A stretch of DNA of 64,000 nt from NCBI GenBank assembly GCA_036172245.1, contig JAYWIR010000023.1, positions 186,001 through 250,000 on the forward strand, given 5' to 3'. Both the position numbers and the translations under genes were made by a program. A model generated the notes under the pieces. That model saw only the letters and a list, made by a program, of their open reading frames with translations, ran no database searches and was not told where the DNA came from. This DNA is from Raillietiella orientalis (taxonomy: Eukaryota). This document shows, piece after piece, positions 12,229 through 63,502 of the stretch. How positions within the stretch are numbered: the stretch's first letter is position 1; every line of letters begins with the position of its first letter.

Positions 12229-12897
12229 GTAAAGGAGGTTCGGCTGGAGGGTGCGGGTGTGGTTAACCGCGATGCGAACGAAAAGTTCCGCTCGCAGGGA
12301 GGTGGCCACTGCGTAGAGCTCGAAGCGCACGCACTCTCGCGGCTGCATGGTAGGAGGGGGGAAGAGGGTCGGAAGCTGCGAAAAAAACGATTCGCTCCCC
12401 TAGCATCTTCCGTCAGTGCCCACTCCTCCCTCCTTTCGCCCTACTCTCCTCTCCGACGGCCCTGCACGCACCAGGCGCTCGTGCGCGATCAGAGGGTTGC
12501 CATCCGCCCCGAGGACCTCACCCCGTGAATCGGCAAAGCGCTTCGGGGTGCCGCTGCTTGCGTGGACTCCGGCGGCGCCTGCGCCAGCATCGAGGCTCTA
12601 CGATTCCGGATGTGCGTCCCATCGGGGCGCTAGCACATTCCAGGAGACCTGTCGACTCGCATCCCTGTGGGCCGCACTCCACCTCGCGCGCACCTTCAAT
12701 GACCTCTCGCAAGAAAGCCCGGCTGGAGTGCCGCTCTCGTAAGCGGATGCGGTGCAAAACCCTGCCGAAGCGGTTCTTTCTCTGCCCTTCTCCGGTGCGG
12801 GGGCAGTAGTGACGTAATTGAACCTGTTTGCCTAACCTCGCTTCCGTGCTGATCAAGCTAACCTCGGGTCATCGTTCTTGATGTTCTTTCCTTTCAG

Positions 12898-15546: not shown

Positions 15547-15735
15547 CCAACTGGGGCAGTTGCGGATGGACCTCGAGGGCATCCTGCGAAGGATGACCCT
15601 CCTCCCAGTGGACTGTGATCCCTTACCGGCCCTCCAAACTCTTTTTGTTTTTCTTATCTTTGTTTTTATTTTTTGTTTTCTCCCCCATCCCCTTCCACTG
15701 CCGAGGAGAGTCACACCGGGCTGCATCCCGGTGTG
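15547..15735 (+). mobile_element. Family A LINE 3'-end fragment, inverted relative to its neighbours
   Basis: QLGQLRMDLEGILRRM plus a T-rich 3' UTR closely matching 20310-20495. Confidence 0.88.
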
Positions 15736-15739
15736 ACTC

Positions 15740-18545: not shown

Positions 18546-18879
18546 ATGTCAAACCAGGTCCACCTCCGAGCACCAAGGAAGAGTCTCCTACGCTTTCGCG
18601 GCCACTGTTCCTCTTCGCAAGGGGTGACCTCAAGGCGCACAGCGGCTCCCTTGCCCCGTCTCTCTGCTTCGTTCGAGTTGCGCGAGGCGGTTGCCGCTCG
18701 CAGGATCTCCCGGGCTTCGCGAACTGTCGTATCTAAGGAGATTCGGCCACGATCGCCTTCTCCCCCTGCCTCGCGCGCGCGAGGAGACCCCTCCCTTCCT
18801 TTCCTTCCCAGGAGAGGAGATGCACCTCCCCTGAGAAGGAAAAGAACCATCCCCCATCCTTTTCCCCCGCATCTTCGCG

Positions 18880-23319: not shown

Positions 23320-23990
23320 ACCCGCGTCGGAGGCCGTGCGGTTGCTGCGGTCGCTGACAAGTGGAACCGCAAGTCGTGAGTTCGAATCTCGCACGGGGCG
23401 AAGTTTCGACTCCGAGAAAGAGGGAGAATTGAGTCGCGTGGACTTCGAGTCCTCTCCCGAGGGATGGCGCTGGGTGCTTCGGATGTGGCACTGGTAGCTG
23501 ATAAAACCGGATACCCCCGATAAGTGGCCGGAATTGGGAATTCGTCCTCCAGATTCCTTCCAGGAATCAAGGAGCGCCGGCTCCTTTTTGAATTTCCCCT
23601 CTCCGGTTATGCAGAGGAGAGTCCCCTCAGGAGAGTGGGGTGGGTGGTAGGGACCCTCCATTGCGTACCATGGAGTGGGTGGATCGATGCCTCTTCAGAA
23701 TGTTAAGAAGAAGAGCGCTGCCTCCTTCAGGGAGCGCCCTTCAGAGAAATTGGGGAGCGTCCCTTCGTGGCTCTCTTCAGGGGAGCAACGAGCAGGTCTT
23801 TTCCTGGGATCCCTCCAGAGAGAACAAGGGAGAAGAATTTTCCCTTCGGGGTTCCCTTCGAAGACAACTGGAGCGAGGGTTCCCTTCTGGGTTCTCTCCC
23901 AAGAGTTAGAGGAAGGGACTTTTTCCTCCGGAGCGCTTCCCGGATTCCGAATTAGGGTGGTCCTTCTCGAGGTCCCCCTAACTCCAAAGA
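23320..23990 (+). mobile_element. tRNA-headed SINE-like dispersed repeat, copy 1
   Basis: A-box-like AGGCCGTGCGG and B-box GAGTTCGAATC. The body block CACTGGTAGC...CCCCGAT..GTGG...TTGGGA is shared with the copies at 28.3, 34.1 and 42.9 kb. Confidence 0.7.
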
Positions 23991-26652
23991 GGCGCTGGAT
24001 CCCGCTTCATCCCGGCCGTGGATCTCGCCCTCGAGTTCCGTAGCCGAAGAGTACGAAAAATAGCGGGTTCCCTACGAGGTCAAGAGAGCGAGGAGCCGGG
24101 TGCAAAGTCTCGTCCACCCACGCTTCTCTGACCCTCCAGAAAAGGCCGATGGGATCACTTGGGAGTCCTAGGGGGAGAGGGCAGGACGCGCACGTGCGGT
24201 GAGGACGGGACGCCCGTCCAAAGAAACCAAGGAACCGGCTCTGGAGCTCGAGCGCTGGTGGTGGACAAACCACCGGCCTGCTACGCTCATCCCCCCTCTC
24301 AAAAAAAAAAAAAACACCCGGACATGCTGAAGCGCCGCCTGCTGCGTGGCGCATGTCACCCGCCGCGACTTCATTCCCGTGGAGTCGCGGCTGGAGAGAA
24401 GCTACGCCGACACGATGGGTCAGGCGGACAGACCCATCATGTCCTCTTTCCCGAGGATGGGCGGCAAGTCGGAGGCATCTCTCCCTTCCCCTCTCCTCCT
24501 ATCCATGCACGAAGAGATGTCCATCTGCGGGCTGAAGACCCAGCGAGGTCCGCTCGCGAGCGGGAGCGCTCCAAGTGTGGCGGACTTTCCAATCCCGCCC
24601 ATGAAGGAATGACCTTACGTTTGTATTTATTTCTCGACTGACGGGAAACGGCTTCCCCCCCCCGTCCCGACGCATGAGGAGGTGAACAGAAAGAGCTTGG
24701 CATCCGTGACCTCACCCCTCACGCGGGGAGTGACTTCCTGGACGTCCAGCTCCCGGCAGAATCGAAATGCCATTCGCCTGGAGCCAGTCCGTGTTACCCA
24801 CCTGTTGCCCGGGAAGCCCCGACCCATGGGGAATTCTAAGGTGCAGGGGAGTTGAGCTCACAGCGGGGCTTGAGGATCTTTGAAGAGAAGATGGCGGCCA
24901 TCCCTCGGACCTCCATCAAGGCACCGACACAAACCTCCCAAAGCCCTGCTGGGACATTATCTCCGTTAATTGCAGATTAAGAAACGAGAGCCACTGTCCA
25001 GCGGCAATGGATTGGGCTTTCCGCATCCGGAACTCTCCAGGAATCCTTGCTTACCCGTAATTTCTCTACTATGGATGGCTGTGGCGGATCGGCTATGACG
25101 TATGCAAGGAAGCGGAACTAACACACTAGAAGGACAAAAGCCTCCCCTCCCCCTCAATGACCCTCCGAGGGAAAAAAAATAAAAATAAAAATGCGTGAAT
25201 TCCAGCCGGGTAGCACCGAACAATGAGAGCAAGTTGCTATGGTTACGAAAGCGGATCCTGGAACCAGATCCATAAACTCTCATTCACGCAAGACTCGACA
25301 CCATCGGCACCCTTCCAACACCTAGCAGCAGATTATTTCCAGCATCACGCGTCAGCGCCCATTGAACTTGTAATATCTGGCGTGACTGACGAACCTTCTG
25401 GAATCGCCATTGTTGTGGGAGAATGGCGGGAAAATCACCGGGACGAGCCTTCCGCCGCGGCTTTCCGTTTTACTGGCTGTGGCGGCCGCCGACCAGATTG
25501 ATTGCCTGAGAGGGATCGTTTGCATCCTTGTCTCAAGCCGTTCCAGGTCATAACTGCTCCTTCCTTTGGTGCTGCTGCTGCTCTAGCGCAGACGTGGCTG
25601 CGAACCCGCAGGGCAGCCGCATCCACCCCGGGGTTTTGCCCTCCCGCCTCGCGCCGAACGAGCGATGAGACGAACGGCCCGCTCCGCATCCTTGGCTGCG
25701 GCAACTCGCCCTTTCCACCCCAAGACGTCCCGAAGCGCTTTCAGCTTCCACACAACCGAAACCCCCCTTCCTCTCCCTTCCCCTGCCAGGCTTTCTCCCC
25801 TGCGGAAGACGCCCCCATCCGTCCCCCCGAGGACGCTGCCCTCTGTGGAGTCAGCTCGCACGGTCTGCCTCGTGAAGGGAAGTTCCCATCCCGGTAAGGG
25901 GGAGGGTGCACACGCATCCCTCTGCCTATCCGACTCCGCGTGAGGGCGCTGCCGTCGCCCCGCCGTCCGCAGCCATCCGCAAGGCGCGCAACACGAAAGG
26001 GGGGGGATCTTCCGTGTTCCGGGAGTAAGGAAACGTTGACAGGAAGGAAGGGCCGACTCGGAAGAAGACCCAGGGAGAAAATCTCTTTTGTCCTTCCTCA
26101 CTCTTTGTTTGCCGTTGCCGTTCTTGCTGCTGCCGCTGGTTTCTCTGCCCCAGATTTCGCTGCTGCCCCTCCCCTTCCCTTTTGTTTTTTTTTTTCGTCT
26201 CTGGGGACGATCGAGAAAAGAAACCGGTGGATTGTTCGAGGAAGTCATTGGCTGCAGAAGCAGCGTGGACACTGGAAGACTTCTCGCGCTGCAGGGAACG
26301 CAAGATGGCAAATTATGCGATCCCGGAGGTTTCTGCCTGGTGACGGCGGAACGATTATTTGAAAAAAAATAAACCACAATTCAGAGGGGAACGGCGTCTT
26401 TTGAATACAAGAGATTCCGAAGAAAAGAAAAAGGAGTTCATTGGGGATGACCACCGGCACGCAGGCCGGCTTCTAAGATAGTAGGGAACGGCGCAAGGGG
26501 ACGATAAATAGACCAAAAAAAGACAGGTGGGTAGGGACAAGGGTCTTTGGTTTTAATCGTTCCTTTCTTCCTACAAGCGACCGTGGCTGGTGGTGGTCTC
26601 GCTGATGACCTCTTCCGGCAGATGAGGCCGCCTTGCAGCTGTTCTTCTGAAG

Positions 26653-28200
26653 GTGGCCACCATGTTGGTGGCCTCCTTTCTTTGTGAAAGAGAATCCATC
26701 TTAACGCGGACCGTCACTATCGCGCGGATGCAACAGATCGTTGCGATCACCGAGCGAGCGTTCTTGCAGGCGCGGCCATGGAAAAGACGGCCAGACGTAC
26801 GTCGCCTGGCGGAGTTTCGAGCGGGGGCCGAGCGCCAGGACTGGCAGTCCGGCGCAGCCACCTTGCTGGACGAAAACGGCCAGGAATGCTCGGCCCCACC
26901 ACAGGTAAAGCGCAGTGTGCGCAATCAGTACTCTTCCCTTTACACAAAGGTACCACTGGAACGCGACTTCTCGAGGCGTTTGCTGCCGGAAGGTGCTCCC
27001 GCGTTAGGGGAGGAGGCGCAGCAGCGGCTCGCGGAACCTTTCTCGATTGCCGGAATCACCAGTGCCATTGGAAAGCTCCGGAAAAGAAAAGCGCCAGGGG
27101 AGGACGGCCTGCCTGCAAAGTTTTACCAAAGCTTTGCGGCAGAGCTAGCGCCCTTGGTGCAGAAGATGGAAGTGCTGACTCGGGAAACGGGCGAGGTTCC
27201 TGACTCGTTCCCGTCAGCTAAAGTGAGGCTCCCCCCGCAACATTGGCAGCTGGCAGTAGTAAATAAAAATGCCAAACTGCTGGCGAAGCAGTGGTCCGAT
27301 TCTCTCGGACGGGTGGCCGAAACGTTCATAAGTCCGGAGCAGACGTACGCTGTTCCCGGCCAGTCGATGGAAGCCAACCTGTTCCTCAAGCGGACCTGGC
27401 TCGCGTTGCTACAGCGGGATGACACAGCAGGCCGGGGGAATCCTCGTTCCCTGCGAGCCAGGGACAGGGAGGCCCTCTGTCGGGGGATGCGTCGGGAAAT
27501 ATGGCGGTTGCGGTCGATCTGCGCAAAGCGTTCGACTGTGTCGATCAGGAACTCCTCCCGGAGCTTCTGGAACGCTTGGGATTCCCGACCGTCTTCCTAA
27601 CCTATCTGCGCTTCAGCTGGCGCTCCGCGATGCTGAACATTTTTTTTCAACGGCCGGCACGTGTACGGCATTCCGGTGCGGCGCGGCGTGAGGCAGGGGG
27701 ACAGCCTGAGCCCCTTGCTCTTCAGCACCTACCTCGACATGGTGCTGAGGGCGTACAGGGATACTCTGGCTTCCCTACCGAGCTCGTGCCGCGGTATGTT
27801 GGCCGTGTAGGCCTACGCAGATGACCTGTTGCTGCTGCTCCCCATGTCTGCCCCTGCAGACGAACTCGAGGAATTCTTCGATCTGCTAAGCAGGAGAGTG
27901 GGTATGAGGTGAACAGAGCAAAGTCAGCGTGTACCCGGTCTGCGCGACGTGGGCTGGGCAGTCGGACTGGGTCCGTTTGGGGATCCCCACGGTTCCTTAC
28001 TTTAGGTACCTAGGGGTGCCGATGGGGAACATTATCCCTACGGAAGCGTGGTCCGGCTGCCTCCACAAAGCAGAGTCGCTGTTCGGCCCGTTCCAAGGAG
28101 GCAACTTCCGATTGCCGGAACGTGCCGTCATTTGGAGCACTTTTGTGGCCCCTGTCCTCCGACCTCTGCTTTTCGTGTGCCCCGCTCCTACCGGTGTGTA
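26653..28200 (+). mobile_element. Family A LINE, linker plus RT domain, decayed
   Basis: KAPGEDGLPAKFY, ISPEQTYAVPG, VDLRKAFDCVD, VRQGDSLSPLLF, YADDLLL and RYLGVPMG across frameshifts. Confidence 0.92.
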
Positions 28201-28339
28201 CCGTCTCTCCCTGAGCGTTAAACCGCTGGAACCGTCTCTCGCTGACTAACCGATTTGATGATCGCACCCTAGCATCACTGCTTAGGGACGGGAGAGAAAG
28301 TTTCTGAGTGGTTTTTAAAAATTTAATAAATTTGCCCGC

Positions 28340-29272
28340 ATCGGAGGCCTTGTGGTTAAGTCTTCCGCGCGTGGCACCACGCATCGCGGGATCGAATACA
28401 CCGGCAGAAACTGACGCAACTGCGTCGTTCGGTTCCGAGTTTCTCCTGCAACGGCGCCGGTTGGCCGAGACATTCAGGCGTGGCCCCGGCGGTGGATAAA
28501 GCCGGCGGCCTCCCGATGAAGGCCGGAACAATGGGAGTCGACCTTCGAGTCCTCCCAGGAATAAAGGAGTGGGGAGTTCCCCCTCCGATCGTACAACGGA
28601 GAGCGGACCCCCTTAGCGGGGGTACCCTTCCTGTTTCAACATAGAGCAGGAGCCCTCTCCTAGTTGTTCGATGGAGCTGGGGCCCCCTAAGCGGGGGTTA
28701 CCCTCCTAGTTACACCCTCTTCACAGATTGCAAGAGTGCAAGGAAGCAAGCGAGAGCGATTCCCTGCGGGAAGCTGCAGCGCCCCTTCTGAGTTTCGGAA
28801 GCGTCCCTTCGGGGTTCTCTTCAGAGTGAACAGGAGCGGTTCCCTTGCGGGTTCCCTCCGGAGAAGAAATTCCTACTAGCGGATCCTTTCCGGGTTCCCT
28901 TCGGAGAAGTTGAAATGAAGTTGAAATGGAGAGGACAGCCCCTCCCCATTGGGGTGGGGGGGGAGGTGTCCCTCCGGAGAGAATGAGGAAAGAGATTCCC
29001 TTCGGGGTTCTCCTTCGGAGACAACCAGGGTGGGAGGTGCGATCCCCATCATCCGGAGGATCCCTTCCCAAGCGTGAGAGGAACGGACTCCGAGCCCTTC
29101 CTGGATTCCTAGGGCGGAACCCCCCTTCCGGGGTGTCCTATCCTGAAGAATTACGCCCCCTTGCCTCAGGCGGAGAGGCGTGGAAACAAAACAGTGTGTT
29201 TAAAAGGGCCACGTGCGCCGCGAGGCATGCGACCGGCTCTTGAGGCTCACTTAGCGAACCAAAACAAAGAAA
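28340..29272 (+). mobile_element. tRNA-headed SINE-like repeat, copy 2 (most complete, A-rich tail)
   Basis: Degenerate tRNA head (GGAGGCCTTGTGGTTAAG...GGGATCGAATAC), the shared body, and 3' end GCTCTTGAG...TAGCGAACCAAAACAAAGAAAA matching 43708-43770. Confidence 0.72.
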
Positions 29273-29280
29273 ACCCCGGT

Positions 29281-29962
29281 GTTGCCACCCAGGTACGCCC
29301 GGGGCGTTTATTGAAACTCTACAAAAACGTGGTACGAGGCCCCACTAACGGCCGCACAACACCGGACCTGCCGGGACGCCGGGACGCAGCCCGGCGTGAC
29401 GCTCCTCGGCAGTGGAGGGGAGTTTGGGAGAAAACAAAAAAAATAAAATAAAGAAAAACAAAAGGAGTTTGGAGGGAGGGGAAGGGATCACTATCCACTA
29501 TGAGGAGGGCCCATCCTTCGCAGGATGCCCTCTAGGTCCTTCTGCGTTTGTCCCAGATGGGGCCATCTCGCAGCTCTTCGCATGAAGCTCACAGCGTACG
29601 GGATGACTTCCCTCTCGTTGGCATCCACTCCTTCGTCGCAAATGTCGCTCCAGGCCGCCACGATGCCCCGGATGCAGCAGAGGGCTGCGAGGGCTGCGGC
29701 GGGCTGCAGGGCGTCCCGCACGAAGAGGGGCTGAAGAACGTCTCTGGGCGCGCTGCCCATTGGGAGCCCGAGGGTCGTCCCGAACCGTTCCCACAGGGGT
29801 CGGATGGCAGCACAGTCAACTAGAAGGTGGGGGAGCGATTCCCGCTCCCCACACCTGGCACACTCAGGGCTTACACTTCCTCGCGTCCAGTGGAAGCGGC
29901 GCGCGTTGCAGGGTAAACCCCAGTGCAACAGCAGCAGTGCCGACTCTTGCCACTTTAGCGGG
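29281..29962 (-). mobile_element. Family A LINE 3' end with complete 3' UTR
   Basis: PLKWQESALLLLHWGLPCN, CARCGERESLPHLLVDC, stop at 29491, UTR and terminal hairpin. Confidence 0.92.
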
Positions 29963-30845
29963 AAAACCCCGGTGTGGTAAAACGGACGGAGGACCTTCTT
30001 CGAAAAGCCCTCTGGGGTAATAGGAGATCCCGAGTCCGATTAAAACACTTGTGTGCTCCTTGCCGCGACGGAAGACTTGGACTCCTGACGTTGGAGCGGG
30101 TGGAAGTTCAGTTGAACTTTCGAAGACTGGCCTTTGGTGCACCCCTGCGCGTTTGCTCTCCCGGATGGCGGTCGGTGGGAAGGACTCGCAACCCTGTTTG
30201 CGTGTCACCACCGCCGGCTACCATCCTGCGGCTTCCCTCTCCGGTGTGTCGCGGCTCTGGTGAGAGCGAACACGTGGATTCGCTGCCGCCCTGCGAACAT
30301 CCCGGCCTGGCGGCAAGAGAAAGTGAGGACGTGGGCCCAGCTCACCCGGACCCCGTCGGAAGTTACCCGCTGCCGAGAGTTTCAGAGGAACAGCGGAAGA
30401 ATACTGGAGGCGGCGGGTAGTGAGCTGACCATGTTGGTCTACCCAGCAGCCACCCCCTTCGCCGCAGAGGTGTCCTTCGCTATCGAGGTACATGGCACCT
30501 GCCTATCGGCGAAATGGAAGGTTTCCTGCGAGATCTCGGCCCGCAGGAAGCCTGTTGGTGGCTGGACTCCGCGTCAGCTGGCTGACGCGGCAACAGCAAG
30601 CACCGTCTCCAAAGGACTGGAACGTTGGGGCGAACTCTTCTTCATTCAGCCCGAAGAGTTGGAAGTGCCCCCCGTGTTCATAGACAGTAATCTGCTTCCC
30701 CTCAATTAACAGCACGCGGCGCTGCTGGTACTGCACTGGGGTCTCCGTGCAATGCGCACCGGCACCACTGGACGAGGGGAAGCGCATCGCCGAACTGTGC
30801 CAGGTGTGGAGAGAAGGATACCTTCCCCCACCTCATAGTGCAGTC
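29963..30845 (+). mobile_element. Family A LINE ORF2 fragment, heavily decayed
   Basis: KRTEDLLRKALWG...LCAPCRDGRLGLLTLE and GLERWGELF. Confidence 0.85.
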
Positions 30846-34139: not shown

Positions 34140-34860
34140 AGGGATGTGCATTAAGTCTCAAGTTAGGGGGTGTTCCGGTAGGAGACCACCCCATGAATCC
34201 CGAAAGACTCCGGGGAAAGGGGTCTTCTTGCCCAAAGGGACCACGCGTGGTGGCGCCAAGCGTCTCGGGTTCGAATCCCCACGTGGGGGGATCAAAGAGA
34301 CGAATCATAAATGGGGAGGAAATTCCGAAGAGAACCACTTCTTCCTCATCCTATCCGGAGGGACTCCTGCGTTTCTTCTCCGCAAGGACTCCCCGGAAAA
34401 GATCCTCGTCTCCTCCTCTACCGAAGGGAATCCCGAAGGAACTCTCATAAATTTTCTCTGGAGGGTGCTCCCCGAAGGGAGTCGCTTGCTTCTTCACACT
34501 CTGGAGAGGCGACCCCCGAGGGGAGGATCAACCAGATCCTCGGTGCGGGATGGAGGGTCCCCCTCGGAGGGCTGGAGGGGAGGCTCTACTTTCACAGCCA
34601 GAGAGAACCCTGGAGGGCTTTCCAATGTCAAGGAAAGACCCCGGAGGGTCTGCTTCCAATCCCGGAGGCCACTCAGCGGGGACATCCAGATTTCACCAGT
34701 GCTGCCACCTCCGAAGCCAGCCGAGGCCAACCAGCGTCACCCTGCGAGAGGTGCTCTAAACCCACGGCGCACCCGTCGATAGGCTTTGATCCCCCCACGT
34801 GAGGATTTGAACCTGCGACGCTTGGAGCCACCACGCGCGGTCCCTAGCTGTGGATGAAAA
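34140..34860 (-). mobile_element. tRNA-headed SINE-like repeat, copy 3, containing an inverted duplicate of its own head
   Basis: Head at 34784-34844 (GGTTCAAATCC B-box-like), shared body at 34640-34700, inverted head copy at 34237-34297. Confidence 0.7.
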
Positions 34861-36599: not shown

Positions 36600-37560
36600 G
36601 CCCCCGTCCAGGATGAGCTGCGCTAGCATTGCAGTTCCTCGCGCACGCGCGCACCTCGCGAATACCACGCTCAGCACCCGTTTCGACGGCGTCTACCGAG
36701 TGGACCAGTTGGGCTCGAGTGGCCCCGTGCGGTCGATCCCTCAGTGGCGAACACCCCGCGCACCACAGGGCGCGCACACCGAACGGACTCTGGGGTGAGC
36801 TGCTGGGAATCCCACAGGGAGACCTCGAGTAGCCCCCAGCGCTGAAGAACAAGACCCTCACCCTGAATAGTGGCAGGAGTCGGCACTACTGCTGTTGCAC
36901 TGGGGCATACCGTGCAACGCTCTCTATCTCACTGGACCCGGGGTCTGTGGACTCCAACTGCTACAGGTGCGGGAAACGGAAATTCCTCCCCTCCCGCACC
37001 TGCTTGTAGACCGTGTTGCCCTCCAGTCCCTGTGGTTGCGTTTCGCAACGGCCCTTGGTGCACCGACGGACAATCCCAGGGACGTTACGAAGCGCTTCTT
37101 CGTGCGCGATGCTCTTTCGTCTGTCGCATCCCCAGCAGCTCTTTGCTGCCCACGCAGGATTGTGAAGGCCTGGAGCGACGCCATTGGAGGAGGACGGCGC
37201 GATATGAACGCCATCTGCCCTTCGCCCTTTGCTTCCTGCGGACGGCAGCAAGATGGCCCCACCTGGGGCATACTCGGATGGAACTGGGACGGCATCCTGG
37301 AAAGGATGCAGAGGACGCTCTCCAGCAAACAGCGAGCCCTTCCCGTGGCCCCCAGATTTTTCCTTTTTTTATTGATTTTCATTTTTATTTCATTTTTGTT
37401 TGCCCCCTCCCCCTCTCCTGCCGAATAGAACCTCGCCGGCCTGTGTGCTGGTCACTCGGCAGGTTCCGCGCATTTTCGGACGACTTAGGGCCGATGGCCC
37501 TGAACACGTATGTTTATTATTTTTTATAATAAACGTCCCGGCGTTACCGGGTGTTAACCA
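36600..37560 (+). mobile_element. Family A LINE 3' end with 3' UTR
   Basis: WGELLGIPQGDLE*, WQESALLLLHWGIPCN, LPHLLVD, and a UTR ending AATAAACGTCCCGGCGTTACCGGGTG. Confidence 0.88.
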
Positions 37561-38644: not shown

Positions 38645-38679
38645 ATGCAATCTGGGTAATACCATTTACCAGATTGCAT
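38645..38679 (-). promoter_or_regulatory. Rolling-circle replication origin stem-loop with nonamer TGGTATTAC
   Basis: Perfect 11-bp stem ATGCAATCTGG/CCAGATTGCAT. The 13-nt loop reads TAAATGGTATTAC on the minus strand (nonamer 38656-38664). Confidence 0.92.
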
Positions 38680-38698
38680 CTTCTGCGCAGTTACGCAC

Positions 38699-38705
38699 TA
38701 TAAAT
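38699..38705 (+). promoter_or_regulatory. TATA box for Rep
   Basis: TATAAAT about 65 nt upstream of ACCATG (38768). Confidence 0.6.
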
Positions 38706-38767
38706 ACCAACACACAGACAACCAAAGCCAAGTCTTACCTACAGTGAATTACCTACAAGCAGAGACC

Positions 38768-39106
38768 ATGCCGTACGCACTGTTTTTCAATCGGTGCTTC
38801 ACACTGTGTAACTTCTCCGAAGAAGACTTGAAAGACATCAAGAACTGGTGCCGTGCCAACTGCGGCTTCGCCTGCATTGGACAAGAAACAGCAAAAACAG
38901 GGACACCACATCTCCGAGGATACTTCCAACTTAAAGAGCCACGCACCATGCCAGGACTCAAAAGAAAACCATTCCATGAAACTCACTTAGAAAAACCAAG
39001 AGGATCAGCACAGAGCAACCTACGGTACTGCACAAAGGAGGATAAACAAGCATGGACATACGGCAAAATCCACGAAGCTAACGAACCCACCGACTACCAA
39101 GACCTA
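38768..39106 (+). CDS. rep: CRESS-DNA virus Rep exon 1 (HUH endonuclease), EVE1
   Basis: Motif I CFTLCN, motif II TPHLRGY, motif III YCTKED; no stops. Confidence 0.93.
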
Positions 39107-39154
39107 GTAAGCCATAAACCTTTAACAACAACATTAGAAATCCTCTTCCACTAG
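39107..39154 (+). other. 48-nt phase-0 spliceosomal intron in EVE1 Rep
   Basis: GTAAGC donor, branch-like CTTTAAC, pyrimidine run, CTAG acceptor. The acceptor TAG is the only in-frame stop in Rep. Confidence 0.82.
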
Positions 39155-39613
39155 ATACTCCAACTCATCGAGGATGGTGCAGACGAACACTTCATCCTCA
39201 AAAATCACACAAAGTTCTACAGCAAGAATATTAACTTCGTAAAAGAATGCTTCAGACTTACCAGAAGCAGAGCACACCCCAAACCCTTAACTAATCTCCA
39301 ACTAAGAAGCTGGCAACTCGACATACTTAAACTCATACGACATAAACCAGACAACCGCAAGATCCACTGGTTTTATGACCCTATCGGAGGAATAGGCAAA
39401 ACAACCATGGCTAAATTCCTTTACTTAAAAAAGGGTGCCATATATATGCATTCGTGCAAAAAAGCAGACGCCGCCCACATATACAACGGCGAGAGGATCA
39501 TCGTTGTCGACCTCACAAGGGACAATCAAGAACTGGTGCGATACGGCTTCATAGAAACCATGAAAAACGGCATCATGTTCGACAGCAAATACCAAGGATC
39601 AATCAAATACAGT
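39155..39613 (+). CDS. rep: CRESS-DNA virus Rep exon 2 (SF3 helicase), truncated before motif C
   Basis: IHWFYDPIGGIGKTT (Walker A), IIVVDLTR (Walker B), YGFIETMKNGIMFDSKY. The frame stays open into GC-rich flank up to 39928. Confidence 0.92.
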
Positions 39614-40559
39614 CCCGCAGGGCTTTCCTCGGGAAGCCAGCGGTCCTTCTACGCGCCGCGTAGGGAGAGGGAGAAACGAAAAGCGGAAGTCAGAGGAGGG
39701 GCAGCAAAAGCGTTCTACGCCGCGGACCGCTCCGGTAAGAATCTGCTACAGACGAACGTGCTGAGGTCATCCCGCCTCCCGAAAACCGCCGCAGGATCAC
39801 CCTTTGCCGCGCAGAAGTCTTCCATAGGCCGGCATAGGAAGTTCAGAGCATTGGCCAATGGGAACCCTCAGACGAGTCCAAATCGGTGGCATCTCAAGCA
39901 AAACTACCCTTTGCCGGCACCGACGTAATCTGATGACACCGAGGTGTTTCTTTCCCAAAGGAACGTAGGCAAACAAAGTAGGGAGTGAACCATTTGCTTC
40001 TAGGAGTTCAAGGGGGAATAAACCATCGACCCACAGGTTGGCAACAGGAAGGACAAAGAGGGTTGTAAGGGTCACATTATGGATGGCAAACAAACAAAAA
40101 AAAAAGGAAGAAACAAATAAGCGAGAGAGGGAGAAGGATCAACGGAGATGCCGGCAGCATCCTCCTCAGCTTCCGGTTTCCCATTTCTGATCGTTGAAGA
40201 GGCGGGGCGTACGGCCTTCGATTCTTGCTGACGTACTTCCTGCGTGTACCAGGAAATCCTTCCCACGCAATCGAGCCGGCGAGACATCCGGGCTGCAGGC
40301 GAGAGCCCTCCACTAGGGAAGCAGCGCCGCGGCGACTTCTTGAGGGTGTCCTCCGGACTCCGGGGGTCGCACAGCAGACGTCGGACAGGAGATCCGTCGA
40401 CCATTCCCTTCTGTTACTCCTGCTACAGAGCACGAGATCTCCCACTATCCCACCATGCCCCCTGTCGTTTCTCTCTCATAGGGAGGACAGCACTACGGCT
40501 AGGGAGCTGGCGGAGTCCAAACCACATCTTCTGGTCCTGTCGCACTTCCTCAACAAACG

Positions 40560-42850: not shown

Positions 42851-43770
42851 TTCCAGGTGGTTGCGGTCTCCGCGTGTGGCACCACTAATCGTCGCGGGTT
42901 CGAACATTCGGAAAGAATCTTCCCGGAAGGAACCTCTTCACTACCGCGAGTCGGTCAGCGTGTGGCAGCCACGAATGCTGGTCATCGCTTTGCATGCCCT
43001 GATGGAGAAGTCGGGCAGTCGCGCTGGCAGGCTGCCCTCACGGTGAAGCGAACTTCGTTGGAAGGTGGCTGCTGTTCGACGTGCTCGCTCTCAACGCTGG
43101 ATCTGCGGAGGATTTGCTTGGAGAGGGAAAAGGAGAAAGACTCCGAGAGATGCATGTGTGTGGGTTCAAGTTCCTCTTTCAAGATGATGCTGCATTTGGG
43201 TGCCGCACTGGTAGCGGTTCAAACTGGATGTCCCCGATGAGTGGTCAGGATTGGGAGTCGACCTCCAGGTCCTATCAGGAAACAGAATCAAGAAGTGGTA
43301 GTCCTCCTCCGGTTGTGCAAAGGAGCCATCCCTTCCCCCTCGTAAATGGATCCTCCGTCTCGCACCATGGGGCTAGTGTGGTATCTCTCCGGAATGCAGA
43401 GAAACGCGCCGTTCCCTTCGGGGAGCACCCTTCTTAGAAATTTCGGAAGCGTTCCTTCGGGGTTCCCTTCAGAGGGGGAAACAGGGAGAGGCCCCCTTGC
43501 AGGTTCCCTCTGGAGAAGAAAAAATGGAACGGACCCCTCCGGGGATCCCTCCCCAGTCGTGAGGGGAAAGGACTCCCTTCTCTAGAGCCCTTCCTGGATT
43601 CATAGGTGGTCCCCTCCCGGAGTGTCCCCTATCTTGAAGAATTACACGCACCTCCGGGTGGCGTGGAGCAGTGTCAAAGAGCTGTGTGAGCCGTTGGGAG
43701 CGCGGCAGCTCTTGAGCTATTCAGCGAATCAAAAAAAAAAAAAAAAAACAGAAACCCGAAAAAAAAAAAC
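42850..43770 (+). mobile_element. tRNA-headed SINE-like repeat, copy 4, with poly(A) tail
   Basis: Head GTGGTTGCGG...GGGTTCGAAC, shared body from ~43205, poly(A) from 43731. Confidence 0.68.
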
Positions 43771-46169
43771 TGAAAGGAAAATAGCGAAGACAGAAAAAGA
43801 ACCCAAAAGGATTTATGTATCTGCACTGGGGAGTTCCCAGTGCCATCGGCTTCGGCACTTCGTTTCCAAGGGATTTGCGTCCCCAAAGCGTTTAGCGTGT
43901 GGGACGATCGAGTCGTTCCCAAGCCTGTTGTCGGACTCCAAGAACTGTGGAGGAGGTCGTCTTCAGCGCTCCTGCTCCCGGAAACACCTGGACGAGGTTA
44001 GGTTTCCGCCACAAAAAGTAGGCGGTCGCGAATTTTGAGTTTCCCGCCGGACCCTTTATTCAGGATCTCCGCTCTGGGAGATCATAAAGGATCCATCCTC
44101 CGCCACCGCGAACACCTTGGAACCCATGTAGTTGAACGGGCGTTTAGGGAAACAGAGAGTGAGCGTGGCGCGTCTGTGGAGACTCCACGCGCCTCTCGCG
44201 CTAAGTATGAGGGTCACGAGATCCGCCCTATCTTCAGCCACGAGGTCGCAATGCTCGGCCCAAATCATTTACAGCCACCTGGAAGCCAACGTGACTTACC
44301 TTGTAGAGCAGAGCAGGATTGAAACCCGGGGATACGTAAGCCATCATCTCTACGTGTTCGGGCGGAGCTCTTTCGTTGGCTACTACCGCCGCCATGTCAC
44401 TCCACAACCTGGAAGCAACTGGAGAGATGGCCATTGCGACTCGTTTGCGGGCAGCAACAACGGGCTGAGATCGGAAGCATTCTCGACACCGTTCTCCTTG
44501 AGACCAGCACAAAATGCAGGCGATCCCCCCTCTCGACTTCCTCCAAATGGGGGCACTTCGCTGCAGTCCCCACGGAGGCCGCTGCCACGCGGGTGGATTC
44601 CTGTCACTGCGCATGCAACTCGAAAACGTGACCAGCAGCAGTCACGGTAGAGAGGATGCAAAGAATCGTCTCTGCCACGGCTTCTTGGGGGAGTTCACCT
44701 CGCGCGGAAGGCCAGAATGGCCAGAATCGCCGCAGCAAGTCCTCGGCCATGCCCCCGAGTGCAGCAGCGCTGGAGTCGGCTTTCGGCACGGCTCTTGGAG
44801 TGACAGCGCAGTCGAAGAAACAGTTGCGAGAAAGACTCGCTTGTTTCCGCACTTGGAACAGTTCGGCGATGAGGCACTCCCGGAAACGGGGTGTCGGCGC
44901 TGGAAAAGAGCACTACCAGCTCCTGTCTCCACTTCAAAGGGAGCACCGAGGAAGAATGGTAAGTAAGCGTGACAGGAGAAGTGTCGAAAAGCATCCGAAA
45001 CGAAGGATCTGACACCCCAAGTCTCCCTTTCTTTTGTTATTTATCTATTGTCCCTTTCCCTTCCTCTCCGGACATCTTGTGCGACAGAGCTGTGTGTCGG
45101 TGATCCGTCCGGTGAAATTCTTCCTGTTTGCCCAGTTCCCAGCATGTTTGTTAATTTTTACAGTAATCCCCCCCGCCGCGGCCGGGTGAACACGCACGTG
45201 CCATTCTATGGTGAGTTGGCGTTCCGGCAGAGCTGTGAACCGCGCAGCAACACTCAAAGCACACGGTGCAAGCGAGTCCTACCGCCATTCTTCGAGTGGC
45301 AAAACCTCTCTGGCGCCCCATTTGCACGGTTTCGTGGAAGTACCACAGAACATCGCTGCTCGCGCTCCACTGCTGTAAGCGCATCGCTGCTCGCTTTGCA
45401 TGACCATTGGTTACTCGCCACGTAGAGACTGCTGATGTGAAACCTCCCAATTTCAGAGAGTCATGGCGATCTCGGGGGAGACAGGCAGGCAGAAGCAGTG
45501 GCGCCTTCCAAGAGCAATGCTCTTCCCGACCGGTGCAGCAGTGATTCGAAGGAGGCGGAATGAGAAGGAGGCAAGCAGTTTTCCACGCCCTAAGAGAGCT
45601 GCTGCTCCTCCAGGAAGGTAGGCAGGCACAGATGCCATGTGCCGCCTCTTCGTAGGCTCGTTCGTAGGCTCAGCTTCGTTCGTAGGCTTGTCAGCTGGCA
45701 ATCCACGATCGGAAGAACTAGGAAAAGCTCCTTCTCGTCGGGACACCCTCCCAACTGCGCAACTGTTTCACCGAGACTCCGGACTCTTGAAGATCCACAG
45801 AGCCGACTATCGACTCGAGGAGATTCCCATGGGAGTCACGACACCTCGGTTGAGATCACCCTGTTTGGAGGCCTTTACAAAGGTGTAGAAAAGGGGCACG
45901 CGCACCTCACGACTCAGTGAGGCCATATCTTTGACCAGATCTCAGTGAAGTAGCAGACACGGTTGTGCTCTGCAAAAAGGGAGAAGAGACAGGACAACGA
46001 GCTATCTCGAGGGGCACCGTAGACCAAGAAAGAAGGGCAGCTCTATCACTTCCGCTCCTGTGAACATACTGCCCAATGTTCATAGGAGCTCCCTTGTCTG
46101 CGTGTCTTTTCTTTCTTCCTCCCTTCCCCTTTTTAACTTTTGAAGCCGTGAGGCAGCGCCCATCCAGCC

Positions 46170-49100
46170 GGCATGCACATAGAGTCAACCAGCGAGGGAC
46201 AAAGGAATACCATGGATGTAGCGATCTCGATAAGGAACGAGCTCGCTCACACCATCCTGGAAACCTTCTGCTCCATGACGGGAGGAATCGTCGGCGCACG
46301 AATTTCCTGGTCCGCAAATGTTCACTGGTTCTTGGTGAACGTATGCGGACTGCACCACCAAAAGCATCAGTGCGCGGAGGCGCTCCACGGAACACTCCGG
46401 CAAAATGTCGCACCGAAGGAGATTGTGATCATCGTGGGGGATTTCAACATCCTGAATGAAATCATTCATTCCCGAGACGCCAGAGGCAGGGCAGCGTATC
46501 GGCGGCTGTCCGACAAGTTCAGGCTGCTGTGGCTAACAGCCAGCCACAAGCCTATCGACCACATCCTCTACAGCTCCGATATAAGGAACCGTATCCACGG
46601 GTTTCGTGACACGCCCACCTTGCTGTCCGATCACCCATTGGTGAGGTTTTCCCTGAGGACTGAAAACCCTCGGCGAAAGAAGGCCACAAGGGCGGCACTC
46701 ATCAGCATGCCTGCCTGGTTCGAAACGCTACCCTGCCATCAAGAAGTTACAGAGACGACCAGCATCCGCAGAGTCACTGACTGGGATAGCCTGAAACACT
46801 GAGTTCACCTGTTCTGCAACATGCAACTCGAAAACAACTCGAAACATGCAGTTCAAGATGCAGTTCGGTGACAAGAGACCGAGGCAGGAAGCGTACCGGG
46901 AGCTGCACATCCAAAATCGCTCCCTCTCGAAGTACTGGGAACAATGCGAAGGTCGGTACGTCTTCCAAAATGTAAAAGGGGAAATCGACGTGCTGGAGAA
47001 GAAGAATCTGGCAACAGACATCTTCTGGATCCAATACGATGGCCACAGTCGGCACACGTCGGAGGACATCGCGGACGCCTTCCAGAGGCATTACGTGAAG
47101 CACTTCCGATGAAGATATCTGTGCCCGACTAATCAAGGAATTTTTTTGCGACACCTGGAAAGACGAACGAGTGAAAACCATCGGAATATGCTTGAAGAGG
47201 AAATCTCCGAAGAAGAAGTGAAAGCTGCGTTTGTGGAACTTCGGCGTTTGTGGCAGCGAGCCCTGATAGTGTCCACATCTCTCACTATCAGCGGTACTTG
47301 CATGCCTACCGACGTTTGTTTCACTAGCTAACGCTCTGCATCCGACAAGAAGGACGACTACCTGCATCCTTCTACGAGGAGGATGAGATTGTTGTCGAAA
47401 GGAGGTAACCTGACTAAGGTTACCCAATAAAGGCCAACCACAATCCTGAACAGCGATGCCAAGTGGTTAGCAAAGATCTGGGTTAACCGCTTAGGCAAGG
47501 TCATGCCGAAGCTCATCTCTCCCGTCCAGACATGCGCAGTGTCCGGACGCCACATGTCGGACAATGTCAAGTGTGCTCAGGCTACCATTGGTCTCAGACG
47601 ATATATCGGTGAGAACTTAGTACTGTGTTTCACTGACATGTAGAAAGCTTTCAAGACGGTGGACCATGGGATGCTGTTGAAGATTCTAGGAAGACTGGGC
47701 CTCCCGGAACAATTCAACAACTTCGTAAAGATGATATTGGAAGAGCAACACTTTCGGATAAAGATAAATGGGGAAGAGACGGCAGCCATCCGGATGGAAC
47801 GAGTCCTCCAAGGCGATGCTCTTAGTCCGATGCTGTTTGTCAATGCTGTTTGTCATGTCCTCTCATCATTCATAGAGAGAAGTGGGCACCTCCGCGGAAT
47901 CACTGTCGACAATCAACGGCTCACCCATCTGGCTTACACGGATGATCTTCTCAAAGGGGAGAGAGGTCAACGTACGTTTCTGGATGTACTGGAGCTTATT
48001 GAAGAAGGATTGGGCTTAAAAATCAACGCCCAGAAAAGCCAACTTTTGCCCGTCGGAATCCTGGATCTCTCCATACTCATAGAGGAAGGATTCCGAACGA
48101 TGGACAATGCGAAGTACCTGGGTGTCCACATTGGCGACAATTCATCGTCCCAACTATTGTGGAAGGAAATCCTGGGGAAAACAGCGAAAGAAGGAGCGAA
48201 GTATACCCGTTTGGACTTTAACATGAAGAAGAGGGCCAATCTTTGGAACGGAGTACTCCTTCCGAAGATACTCTTTGGAGAGGCCTTCTACAGAATGTTC
48301 AAAGATACCAAGAGGGAGGTAGAAAAGCTTCAAAGGAAAACTCTATGGGGAAGATACCAACCAAGAGTCCTCCTCAAACCACTGTGTCATCCTAAGGAGG
48401 AAGGCAGTACCGGGATGAAGTCGCTTGCACACGCTGTGGACACCTTGGACGTGCGACAACTCCTGGACATGTTGGAAAACTGGGAAGACTGGCCGTATGC
48501 AGCGCATAGGGCTTACTCGTTGTTGATAAATAACTCGAGAGGACTGATGACTGCGCTGCTCGGCAGATAGGTGAATGGGTCATCATCGACCCAATCTGGA
48601 GACGAAAGCAACAGCTGGTACACAAGCACCAGCTGAAGATCATACCAAGGAGCAAGGAACTCTGGCAGGAGGAATCCATCCTGGCGATCCCGTGGATGCT
48701 CCCGGTACCTCCGGATACGAGGAGCTGGATCCACCAGCGGTCCAAGGTTACTTTGCAAGCAGCTCAAGTATGGAGACGACGAGAGTACTTTCACTACTCC
48801 CGAATATCCCGATAAATTGATAGGATAGCTGGAAGATTCACCCACAGAACCCGCGAAGTGTGGAAAAAACACAACAACTTCGTGTGGTCCAGGGTAACAA
48901 AGAAAAAACTGTGCCAACTAATAGTTGAAGAGGACAAAGACACCAGTGCCCTCCAAGAAGCCGCCGATAGCCACGGAAGTGCTGGGATAAACCTGTTGGC
49001 TATTGGAACGACGCTCTGGAGGAGGAACTTGTCACCGGACACACAGGATAACCTCCTGATGTTTTATCATGGAGGAATCCTGTGCGGGACAACCATGAAG

Positions 49101-49670
49101 CGTTTCACGAAAAGAAGAGAAGATGAGGAATGCAAAGCATGTGGAGACAAGATACAAGACTCCACGTCTTGACCTGTCCCACGATGCAAGAGTGACACAC
49201 CCTCAAAAAGGTTATCGGGCTACCCACCACATCGACCATGGGAATTTAAGCAGGCATGTTCCAAGGAAATGTGAACGTTCCCTGTTACAAACCTTTGGTA
49301 AGGATGACCATCTCCCTCTTCATCACCGCCATCCTACACTTTGATCTTAGCCAAAAGGCCGAGAAGCGATTGTGCGGTGGTGGAAGATGGAGACCACCAG
49401 CACAGCCGTATCTCCAATGGAAATCCTAAAAGGGCTTATCCAAAAGGAGATCGGCATCAGAAACTGTGGAAGAGTACAGACCTGGAATTACCGATATATC
49501 CTGAGAAGGATTGAGGACAACGTCCAGGCACAAACGACGCCCAGTCCCCAAGTGTAGTGAACCTCAGTGTTAATCCCACGAAGCAGACTTCCAGGTGACA
49601 CAAGTGGAATGATTGGAGAAAATGAATGCATGAGTATGTAGAGTGAATGATAAAAGAAAATAAATTCACC
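46170..49670 (+). mobile_element. Second L1/Tx1-like LINE (family B): decayed ORF2 with endonuclease, RT and zinc finger
   Basis: VGDFN, IDHIL and SDH (APE). ISPVQTCAVSGR, DM*KAFKTVDH, LQGDALSPMLF, AYTDDL and KYLGVHI (RT). CKACGD...HVLTC. Multiple stops and frameshifts. Confidence 0.93.
49334..49370 (-). pseudogene. U2: U2 snRNA 5' fragment (nt 1-37)
   Basis: Reverse complement reads ATCGCTTCTCGGCCTTTTGGCTAAGATCAAAGTGTAG, the conserved U2 5' end. The rest of U2 is absent. Confidence 0.95.
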
Positions 49671-51936
49671 CCACCCCTTGTGGGACTTGGGAAAAATAGT
49701 CAACCAGCTTTCACTGCCCCTCGAAATAATGCACGATAGGAACTCCATGGAGAGCACCTACCCCCTTCGGGGAGTTCCAAGCAGGTCTTCTCTGTTGCTC
49801 TAGATCGTGCTCTCTGAAATGAATGTCCCCTCCATTGCCTGCTCTTCGTCAGGGCGTAAGGGACCTCAGCTGCTGAGGAACGGAGGAAGGCTGCAGAAGA
49901 GTACGTCCAGACAAGCCATTTCGCCTGTCTTCATGACATCCGCTCTAGAGCGCCCCTTGCAGGAGTGTCTGCAGCAAAGGGCGGTCTCTTTGAAGTCTTC
50001 CGGAAAAGCGAATCCCACTGGCCGAAAAACAGATCAGCTGAACACATTGCCCTCTCGGGAACAGTCCCCGAGTGTCCGAATAGGGAGAACCACCAATGCG
50101 CAGATGCGACTCGAAGACCACCTCGGGGTGGTCTTAAAAGGAGTGACTCCGGAGAAACAGAGGAGCATTTCTCAGGACCGAAAGAGGGCACGGCTTTCGT
50201 GGCCAAATACCTTCAAGATCGTCCACCATGACCTATATTCTCATCCTTGAGAAGTGCCAAGACGGTTTACTCGAGCTAGCGGAAAGAATCACGAGACGAC
50301 AGATCCGCCATGAAGGGCCGGACTCCCAGACTAACAGGAGCTTTCGGATAACAAAAACAGGAGCGAGTGGAAAGGAGAGAGCCTTTCCTTCCTTCCTGTC
50401 CATGTTCTTTCTGGAAAGGGCCCCTTCTGGAGAAGAGTTCGCCTCGCCCTTCCTTGGAGTCTTGCTCCAACTGCCGACCCAGCAGCTGCGAAGCAGCACC
50501 GGAAGATCGGGGAGCATCCGACTATGGCCTCCAGCCGTCCCGATAAAGTGGATGTGAAACATGGCAAGGCATGGACGCACCCCGTTATCGCACCTCGCGT
50601 GATCTAGCGGGACACCGCAGTGTCCCCTCCTCTCACCATCTCAGGGGATGAACCAGCAGCGCCAAACAGCTGCCGAGAGCACTAGCGCTTGAAGCAGCCC
50701 GATGAGGCAGACGAGTAACGCAGCCTACGACGAGAGATCGGAAATCGAGCAGTTGAAAATATGGTCGGAAGGATGCCGCCACAACCGCCAAATTCACGCT
50801 TTTTGAAGGCATACTCCACTTCTCCAGCGTCAGCACCATCTCCGAGATCCGGTGATTCCGAGAGGCTACACTCAAGACCGCTGTCCTGTTGACCAGACCT
50901 CGTTGAGGATAGGGAAGCTATCGATGGGATGTGCCAACGAGACATGCACATGACAAAGGCACTGCAGGCAGTGCGCAGGAAGTGAGCTATGCTACAAGAA
51001 ACACCAAGGACATAACCGGATTTGCGTCGTACGCCGAGCGAATCCTTCTGTTCGTTCTCGGCTATCCCGGACAAGATCCTAATGGATAAGTTTCCGAGAA
51101 CAAAGACAAAGTTTCCCGCCGAAAACTGAGAGCTTACAAGGAGAGCCTATGCTTCTCAGGGATGAGTCTACTGAGGAAAGCTACCTGAGACCAAGAACCA
51201 CAGGCACGTCCCGGCGTTACCAGGTGATAATGGCAGGTCGCTCATGGTTGCCTATCCTCGCTCACCGAGAAACACCACGCATCCCTAGCAGTAATGGTAG
51301 TTTAACGAATATGAATGAACAATCGAGCGAAACGGGCACTTTCCAAAGGTGGCTCTCGCGCACCTTGGAAGGCATTTAAAGCAGCACTTGTGTGTGGGGG
51401 GGAGGTCACATGGGCAATCGGCATCCTGAGAAAATGAGATAGTGATCTCAACACTCTCCTATCTTCTCGAGGAACGGACAGACAAAGCTGTAAAGTAAAG
51501 TTCAGAGAGAAGTACCAGGAATACGCAAACCAGCAGGCAATTTATTTCCAACCTATAAAAGATGATTTACACGAAATAACTCCGCATATTTCTTGCCAGC
51601 AGAGATCGGAGCAGCTGTAGAGCAAGTCAAAAGTTTGCACTCAGGGACGAAATAACCAGATGCACAAAAACTATTGCCCCAAGTGGAACCCAACAAATCA
51701 GATATGCCAATGCTAGGTTTGTAAGTGCAATTTTGAAAACAACCATACGGGGATTCAAATCGATATAATAAAAACCATAAAAAACTAATGAGAAAACATA
51801 AAAACCTACTTTGGGCCTGCAAAAAATTACAATCCGTTTGTGAAAACCGCTGCAATTGTGCATTTCTAATGCAAATCTGCATTTGGAACCAAAATTCTGG
51901 CTAGCTACCAGTAAATTAAAGTAAAAAAGAGCAGCA

Positions 51937-53312
51937 TTAACTGTCATATTTTTTCCTTTTGTTTTCTACAAAATACACATCGACGCATTCGTCCTGCTCC
52001 ATGAATAAGCTACTTGGGGTATCCTCTGGTGATAACTCCTCTCCATCAAAATGGAAACGCAACTGATCCATTGGAACATGTTGATGTTCCGCATAAAGTG
52101 CAAACAAGATATGGAATGGATCATCCCTTTTGATATGCATCGTTACAGTGTCCTTTCTTTTGCTTGTCTGCATCTGCAGCCTGATCATGTTGGTATCATG
52201 GATCTCATCGTGCAATGATGAAGCACTGCAGACATTCCCTGATGACTGAGCAACATATGCTTCTACAAAAGCTGTGTAGCTCCTGTAGATAGATAGAGGT
52301 CTCACCAATAACATCTGTAACAGACAGCTGGAGGTGATAGGGAGTATCTCTGGGATACAAGCATCTATCTCTCACACTCAGGTTTATGTGAGATGGATCC
52401 ACCTGCATCAATTCAGCAAGATGCTGCTGCAGCACAGCCATGCCTTGAAACTGTTAATATGATATAATGATTACAGTGAGTAACTACTCTTACTTGTTTC
52501 ATGGGAAACCTGATGATTTTTCCCTGAAACTTGACTTTCAGCAAAATCATCTTATTATTTACTGGACTCTGCGCAGGATCACTGTCATCCTGAAACACAA
52601 CTGTAATCTCTCAATGAAACAGAAAACGTAAACTAAACACACAAGCACTTGCTCCTCTTGCATGTATTCTATGGCCTTCTTCTGCAGCTGCAAACTTCTC
52701 AAAATAGAGCTGACTTCTTCATTGAACGTCACTGTATTCGTACTTTTTTTGTTCTCAAAATCAACTGCTGGCATGTCATCATCACTAATAACAATATGAT
52801 TTAGAAAAAGTACATGATCTTGGGCTTTAAATACGTGCTCATGATCATGATTACACCCAGTATTTAACAGTTTCATTATTCATAGTATAGTCAGATGACT
52901 AAATGACCACAATTTCAAGACCAGTATTTATTGCACAATCAAAAGGAGCAAAATTACACTAAAATATAAAATGAAAATTGGTATGAAAAAACGGCCATCA
53001 AATGTGTCAGCACATTCATCTATATAAAATCTCAGATGCTTAAGACACTATGGATCTATAACTTGGGCAAAAATGCAACAAAAGGTCTATAACCTAGATT
53101 TTTAATATAAACATCAACATGAAAATCCCCATGGATTTTGAAATTTCAACGTACAATAAAATCTAAAACTTACTTTTCGGAATCACTGCTCAATGAGATC
53201 ACACAAATGTCACTCTTGGCCTTTGTTTTCGCATTTTTTTCTTTGTTGCAGATTTGAGTTTCATGTGCATCCTTGGGTTGGCTATTAGCAATTTCATCAT
53301 AGCATGGGATGT
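51937..53312 (-). CDS. Rad60/Esc2/NIP45 (NFATC2IP)-like protein with two SUMO-like domains, 3' exons
   Basis: Phase-compatible exons ~53312-53174, 52784-52649, 52589-52494, 52450-52306 and 52262-51937. SLD1 ends ...PRDTPYHLQLSVTDVIE; SLD2 has LRFHFDGEELSPEDTPSSLFMEQDECVDV. SIM-like VISLSSDSE upstream. 5' exons not resolved. Minus-strand AATAAA at 51541-51546. Confidence 0.82.

Positions 53313-62551: not shown

Positions 62552-63502
<951 letters not shown>

Follow-up and report, generated by a model that had tools for sequence, protein, structure and literature searches.

The window analysed here, that is, the whole stretch of 64,000 nucleotides, contains on its plus strand a decayed LINE that covers at least 46.15–49.3 kb and includes, in this order, an apurinic-type endonuclease (APE) region, a reverse transcriptase (RT) region and a CCHC zinc-knuckle. 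Past the knuckle, this host LINE carries an antisense piece of the U2 small nuclear RNA (snRNA), placed between the two arms of an imperfect inverted repeat. The features of the locus are as follows (window coordinates):

46152–46802 (plus strand): APE region of the host LINE (Exo_endo_phos, E 2.5e-7)
47644–48570 (plus strand): RT region of the host LINE (RVT_1, E 1.9e-12; 308 open codons)
49131–49177 (plus strand): C-terminal CCHC zinc-knuckle of ORF2, with its residues at 49131, 49140, 49163 and 49175; a frameshift splits the knuckle
49311–49329 (no strand assigned): left arm of the imperfect inverted repeat (TCTCCCTCTTCATCACCGC), in LINE coding sequence
49334–49370 (minus strand): DNA copy of U2 snRNA nt 1–37 (Rfam RF00004), with nt 1 at 49370
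49371–49560 (plus strand): presumed continuation of the ORF2 tail past the insert, judged from tail lengths in relatives
49374–49393 (no strand assigned): right arm of the same imperfect inverted repeat (GCGGTGGTGGAAGATGGAGA), which is LINE sequence native to the site or else was copied from the left flank, in inverted form, during the insertion
49550–49557 (plus strand, U2-sense, opposite to the U2 piece): second AAGTGTAG, 180 nt downstream of the insert, possibly a chance match
49646–49666 (plus strand): A-rich stretch with AATAAA, a possible LINE 3' end, recognised by reading only

The host LINE stands rather isolated in the comparisons made. Its RT region matched 3696 library proteins at E ≤ 0.001 (HMMER), the best among the matches listed being 24–38% identical. 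A word-based search for longer related proteins gave none at E ≤ 1e-5, and, when 150 listed relatives were compared with the window by tblastn, nothing scored better than E 0.57 in 48600–49900. Similarly, a search for a second DNA copy of the element, with 46000–50500 and 49200–49800 compared against the window by blastn, returned only self matches, and the other LINE copies in the window share with it only motifs that are 40–50% identical (tblastx). Metagenome scans with the host RT protein and with the flank pattern gave no match. As for a target-site duplication (TSD) of the whole LINE, 43000–46200 and 49400–50100 have in common only 10–12-mers of doubtful meaning.

Where in the element does the U2 piece lie? 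The CCHC region is recognisable: 49044–49151 resembles the family A copy at 29842–29949 (tblastx, E 6.6e-4), and the score of 49032–49172 against the tails of relatives was reached by none of 60 shuffles. Decay is evident from this point on: the stretch that separates the CCHC from the U2 insert has a frameshift and two in-frame stops, the first a TGA at 49193 where relatives, including the window's other LINE family, have W. The U2 piece begins 52 codons past the last Cys of the CCHC, and the ATC CTA CAC just upstream of it falls in the frame inferred for the LINE. A C-terminal CCHC is present in 41 of the 69 library relatives of at least 900 aa, and in 40 of these 41 more than 48 residues follow it (median 108). 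Because the relatives' tails thus run longer past the CCHC, the site of the U2 piece is very probably within the ORF2 tail rather than at the end of the element.

Next to the insert, the tail is too diverged to be aligned with confidence. The part before the insert was not detectable against 72 tails (55 of 60 shuffles), and no frame after the insert did better against these tails than 4 of 60 shuffles. When the three frames after the insert were locally aligned with family A tails, 223 to 1699 of 2000 shuffles scored equally well or better. An alignment by eye of the string 'IVRWWK...' to family A was therefore rejected, as no post-insert frame is significantly similar.

Identity and extent of the U2 piece

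The plus strand at 49334–49370 reads CTACACTTTGATCTTAGCCAAAAGGCCGAGAAGCGAT and, when reverse-complemented, gives the start of U2 snRNA, with stem-loop I and the single-stranded stretch through GUGUAG. In the alignment with RF00004, all model positions from 1 through GUGUAG are matched, except for one inserted A (GAUCAAaGUGUAG); past model position ~40, the Rfam alignment is filler and not U2. With 201 nt searched, the match scored 39.8 bits (E = 5.2e-7), and with the whole window searched, 40 bits (E = 1.5e-4). Since these scores are under the gathering score of 46, a default Rfam scan of the whole window shows no U2 match. With up to 3 mismatches allowed, the window has a single occurrence of the 37-mer, and in 100 dinucleotide shuffles no match to it arose.

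These results bear out the original prediction that U2 nt 1–37 lie here antisense to a LINE, which the RF00004 alignment and the unique 37-mer establish, and that the piece stops exactly at U2 nt 1, model position 1 being aligned to base 49370. Likewise, the order of APE, RT and CCHC upstream confirms its placement in the C-terminal coding part of the element. The other end, the truncation point, falls in the stretch after stem-loop I, which is unpaired in the Rfam consensus structure, and is preceded by CAAA. The one A that the piece has in excess of the U2 consensus may be a native base of this organism, whose U2 genes would then read GAUCAAAGUGUAG, or may be a homopolymer slip; a literature search on that string found no U2 variant with the extra A.

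The piece is a member of the long-known class of truncated small-RNA retrocopies. It is a copy without function, a scar that adds a frameshift to a dead element. The U2 feature is thus real and ordinary, and it is the junction that is unusual.

A short U2-like string also lies downstream of the insert. The second AAGTGTAG extends at 49550 to CAAGTGTAGT, as in the U2 consensus. The 8-mer has 2 matches in the 64-kb window against a mean of 0.82 expected, and Rfam found no U2 in 49500–49760 at E ≤ 10.

Could the 37 nt be the leftover 5' flank of a real U2 gene or pseudogene that was split by a LINE of the Keno or Utopia type? According to the excerpted text of Kojima & Jurka 2015 (PMC4640811), both elements have their insertion site between nt 38 and 39 of U2 and lie in the sense direction; Keno, of the Tx1 clade, has an APE endonuclease and Utopia a restriction-like endonuclease. 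The fragment ends within 2 nt of this site, the breakpoint lies in the same stretch of U2 (38/39 there and 36–37 here), and the host LINE has an APE, as Keno does; the APE also means that the host LINE is not Utopia. However, Keno and Utopia lie in sense orientation with U2 1–38 upstream and 39+ downstream, whereas here the U2 piece is antisense, past the LINE's CCHC, inside the element rather than flanking it, and lacks a flank of U2 39+. The Rfam search of the whole window found no further part of U2, its 3' part included, at E ≤ 5. Furthermore, what follows U2 nt 1 on the outer side is complementary to LINE sequence, a misfit with U2 upstream DNA. We therefore consider a split U2 gene extremely improbable, and the tie to Keno and Utopia that had been drawn in the original prediction is not sustained, given the opposite orientation and the lack of any other U2 part in the window.

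Junctions and the flanking inverted repeat

No TSD was found: between the 39 nt to the left and the 40 nt to the right of the insert, there is no direct repeat of at least 6 nt, and the longest one across the flanks is 5 nt, the 4–5-mers being placed away from the junctions. By reading, neither U2 junction has an oligo(A) tail, an A-run or a T-run.

It was during this TSD search, and hence post hoc, that we noticed an imperfect inverted repeat of 19 nt with the insert at its centre and with 17 matches over 19–20 positions and 1 gap. Between its two arms there are 2 mismatches and 1 gap, and another two extra bases lie beside the apex. When the 40-nt flanks were shuffled, 4 of 5000 shuffles scored as high; among control positions, so did 11 of 6000 taken at random from the window and none of 2518 in LINE coding regions. 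Palindromic flanks around the insert, being a post hoc observation, are suggestive as a sign of the mechanism. As single-stranded DNA, the hairpin region folds at −17 kcal/mol (z −1.86); a chance Rfam match to mir-3198 at 49312–49392 follows the same hairpin. The best inverted match of 49371–49700 to 49000–49333 is the pair of 19-nt arms alone, and a large inversion around the insert was rejected on this ground.

At the left junction, CTACAC, extending up to 9 nt as CTACACTTT, is complementary to U2 next to the copied part and forms a candidate microhomology. The length of the inserted DNA is accordingly 28 to 37 nt, depending on how many of the left-junction bases are counted as target. The bases that separate the insert from the two arms, CATC and TGT, are candidates for untemplated ones. 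By reading, the GAT of U2 nt 1–3 is complementary to the ATC directly left of the insert.

Origin of the insert

How did the piece come to lie in the LINE? We consider it likely, with good confidence, that an internally primed U2 cDNA that had run to the RNA 5' end was inserted into a resident LINE. This statement covers two versions, which differ in where the priming DNA end came from: a break under repair or a nick made by a LINE endonuclease.

The version that we prefer, though tentatively and at slightly less than an even chance, is an RNA-templated, endonuclease-independent event resembling a class 2 templated insertion. A DNA 3'-OH inside a resident, decaying LINE copy would have primed the reverse transcription of U2 snRNA in the germ line. 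The plus strand would be the cDNA strand, its end ...CCATCCTACAC(TTT), which can also be taken as ATCCTACAC(TTT), pairing with (AAA)GUGUAG in the single-stranded branch-point region of U2. A reverse transcriptase acting in trans, most likely the LINE ORF2 protein, would have copied U2 to its capped 5' end, and the cDNA end would then have been joined to the other side, TGTGCGG.... The 3'-OH would have arisen from a break at or near the hairpin-prone site, with repair by end joining; the left flank might have served, by snap-back, as the template of the right arm. Where priming took place, which enzyme acted, that a break was the origin and that the LINE had already integrated are what we infer from the scar. 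A break as the origin of the 3'-OH is favoured because there is no TSD and no A-tail and because the insert sits at the tip of the inverted repeat; an RNA template is argued for because the copy stops at the transcription start. The host LINE is decayed and the 37 nt are off the U2 consensus by one A, which, on the evidence of the sequence itself, weakly suggests that the U2 insert is younger than the LINE copy.

In the excerpt of Onozawa & Aplan 2016 (PMC5110952) that was used, class 2 templated insertions are described as RNA-derived, lying at double-strand breaks, with no TSD and no poly(A) and with end-joining marks at the junctions such as microhomology, microdeletion and untemplated bases; the reported patches are of 73–414 bp and come from varied transcripts. 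The U2 piece is similarly an RNA-derived patch without a TSD, poly(A) or cryptic poly(A) signal, and its junctions allow microhomology and a few untemplated bases. On the other hand, it is only 37 nt long and comes from the 5' end of an snRNA, and the break is here a presumed one. Against a break under repair there is also the consideration that, in mammals, tailless copies are far commoner than break-repair patches. Furthermore, LINE coding after the insert has no significant similarity, its continuation being drawn from the relatives' tail lengths only. Blunt or 1-nt staggered endonuclease cleavage likewise leaves no TSD.

The other version is a canonical tailless retropseudogene. In it, a LINE endonuclease would have nicked the plus strand after ...CACTTT, the exposed end would have paired with the A-rich CAAAGUGUAG of U2, and TPRT would have run to the U2 5' end; the second cut would have been blunt or offset by 1 nt, and the inverted repeat would be coincidental. 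Tailless retropseudogenes are the commonest known source of such pieces. First noted for U2 by Van Arsdell 1981, as stated in the part of Kojima 2015 (PMC4494074) drawn upon, these 3'-truncated copies number 666 in human, 638 in mouse, 63 in anole and 8 in maize in the excerpted text of Noll 2015 (PMC5322556, file S1), which reports none in platypus, chicken, rice and Arabidopsis, so that within this excerpt the class is known from therians and anole, plus the 8 maize copies. In the same excerpt, the truncation points coincide with single-stranded regions of the RNA, the copies have flanking duplications, and the targets follow TT/WAAAAWW and are complementary to the RNA where it is truncated; the mechanism favoured there is priming inside the RNA, at single-stranded A-rich sites to which the target is complementary (Noll 2015, PMC5322556).

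Like these copies, the present piece begins with the first nucleotide of U2, breaks off within a single-stranded stretch that contains A residues, lacks an oligo(A) tail and shows a possible complementarity of up to 9 nt between target and RNA at the truncation point. The putative nick, ...TTT/G, is T-rich on the primer strand. In addition, the 8-nt duplications CCGGTGTG at 28191 and 29969, around an insertion in this window that starts with a U3 fragment, make LINE machinery and the trans-mobilisation of small RNAs plausible here. However, the TSD, which is the defining feature of the curated class, is absent, the target is a poor fit to TT/WAAAA, and the piece sits at the apex of an inverted repeat, comparably palindromic flanks being found at only those 11 of 6000 random positions; the LINEs here also differ in being without close relatives in the protein library. 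We regard a canonical tailless retropseudogene as possible, though on balance doubtful.

The original prediction had proposed microhomology-primed reverse transcription to the RNA 5' end and had pointed to 3'-truncated U2 retro-pseudogenes as a known class. The class is well documented (Noll 2015, PMC5322556; Kojima 2015, PMC4494074, both in excerpt). The proposed priming stands in part: the geometry fits, the 5' end is exact and the mechanism is the one favoured in Noll 2015, the microhomology itself being a candidate.

Could the repair of a break have used two templates? The arms of the inverted repeat are more diverged than the U2 piece, which somewhat favours an imperfect palindrome already native to the site over a newly made snap-back copy, the contrast itself not being significant (a chance of ~0.06–0.18 under equal decay, by rough estimate). 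A two-template junction outside mammals would require a break at the palindrome tip in the dead LINE, the copying of U2 from a 6–9-nt microhomology to the cap, and then a snap-back on GAT/ATC that copied ~20 nt of the left flank. We think this unlikely; if true, a single junction would combine an RNA-templated with a DNA-templated segment.

We also considered that U2 was gained during the LINE's own retrotransposition, through a second-strand template switch from the cDNA to U2 RNA and back, or that a master copy carried the segment into many or all members of the family. Template switching from LINE RNA to snRNA is documented for L1 in section 19 of Kojima 2015 (PMC4494074; consulted in excerpt), and a hairpin in the template could stall synthesis exactly at the insert point. 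In the snRNA–LINE chimeras summarised in that excerpt (from Buzdin 2002 and Garcia-Perez 2007), the snRNA lies upstream of the 3' part of a 5'-truncated LINE or Alu, in the same orientation, with poly(A) and a TSD. As in these chimeras and in SINEU heads, U2 here adjoins LINE sequence and was copied by a reverse transcriptase to its 5' end. However, known switch products have the snRNA in the orientation of the LINE and at the 5' truncation point, whereas the present piece is internal, antisense and 3'-truncated, with LINE-like sequence on both sides. A template-switch chimera or a SINEU head was rejected for these reasons: antisense orientation, 3' truncation and LINE sequence upstream. A switch during first-strand synthesis requires an antisense U2 template, and the second-strand version requires two switches. 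Decay also seems to have gone less far in the U2 bases than in the LINE tail around them. We judge it improbable that the segment was acquired while this LINE itself retrotransposed, or with a master copy.

Finally, the patch might be a DNA-level copy that arose without any RNA intermediate, either by a polymerase or through conversion by a U2 gene. DNA-copied templated patches do occur in end joining, and a flank that forms an inverted repeat would suit a polymerase copying nearby DNA. However, a DNA template gives no reason for a stop exactly at the transcription start, nt 1, and we hold this origin to be very improbable.

Truncated U2 retrocopies as such are already known and are among the commonest small-RNA fossils in LINE-rich genomes. 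The new details of the present copy are the lack of a TSD and the inverted-repeat flanks centred on the insert, and this combination of a missing duplication with palindromic flanks makes it a candidate natural example of RNA-templated break repair. If the lineage lies outside therians and lizards, the copy would also be a marker of a reverse transcriptase that accepts untailed nuclear RNAs, and the U3 fragment in the window points likewise.

The U3 fragment and other features of the window

A second small-RNA fragment lies in another LINE of the window. At 28195–28312 (plus strand), we found a match to the 3' part of a U3 snoRNA, from model position ~95 to 219, with 30.8 bits (E 5e-5 locally; Rfam), a score below the gathering score of 34. 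The fragment is 5'-truncated, contains boxes C'/D and stops exactly at the 3' end of the RNA, after which comes TTTTAAAAATTTAATAAA. It makes up the left border of a composite insertion of ~1.78 kb into a LINE copy, which also holds a minus-strand LINE tail at 29326–29964 and is flanked by an 8-nt direct repeat, the above-mentioned CCGGTGTG, at 28191–28198 and 29969–29976. The U3 fragment is thus 5'-truncated and accompanied by a duplication, whereas the U2 piece is 3'-truncated and without one. Since the two differ in this way, small nuclear RNAs appear to have been retro-copied in this genome by more than one geometry.

At 38660–39925 (plus strand), two adjacent open frames resemble the Rep protein of circular ssDNA viruses (Viral_Rep, E 8.8e-13; a weak RNA_helicase match, E 0.008). 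This region is probably an endogenous viral remnant and is perhaps what had earlier been called 'EVE'. The original prediction had also seen a hint of a shared route in the common orientation of the U2 piece and 'EVE2'; an orientation match alone, which has an even chance, does not support such a route.

The second LINE family of the window (RVT_1 and zf-RVT) is represented by several copies and fragments, which share 66–80% DNA identity with each other and are in part nested. Short shared repeats of 50–150 nt, 70–83% identical and G+C-rich, with motifs such as CCCTTAGCGGGGG, occur at scattered places among the LINE fragments. Their positions are as follows:

13931–16943 (minus strand): copy or fragment of the second LINE family
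18800–20548 (plus strand): copy or fragment of the second LINE family
26600–28188 with 29984–30200 (plus strand): copy or fragment of the second LINE family
29326–29964 (minus strand): copy or fragment of the second LINE family
36790–37464 (plus strand): copy or fragment of the second LINE family
23488–23948: short shared repeats
28532–29154: short shared repeats
34325–34692: short shared repeats
43205–43645: short shared repeats

A hairpin at 1767–1835 gives weak microRNA matches on both strands (miR-430 with 32.4 bits against a gathering score of 47.3, and mir-1252 with 33.7 against 70) and is probably a palindromic repeat. A tRNA scan found no tRNA genes in the window. Host genes or exons, which point to the genome of an animal, are represented by a polyubiquitin with four ubiquitin repeats at 62552–63502 (plus strand), by a Rad60-SLD/SUMO-like domain at 51940–52371 (minus strand) and by an exon with an immunoglobulin domain at 11649–12263 (plus strand).
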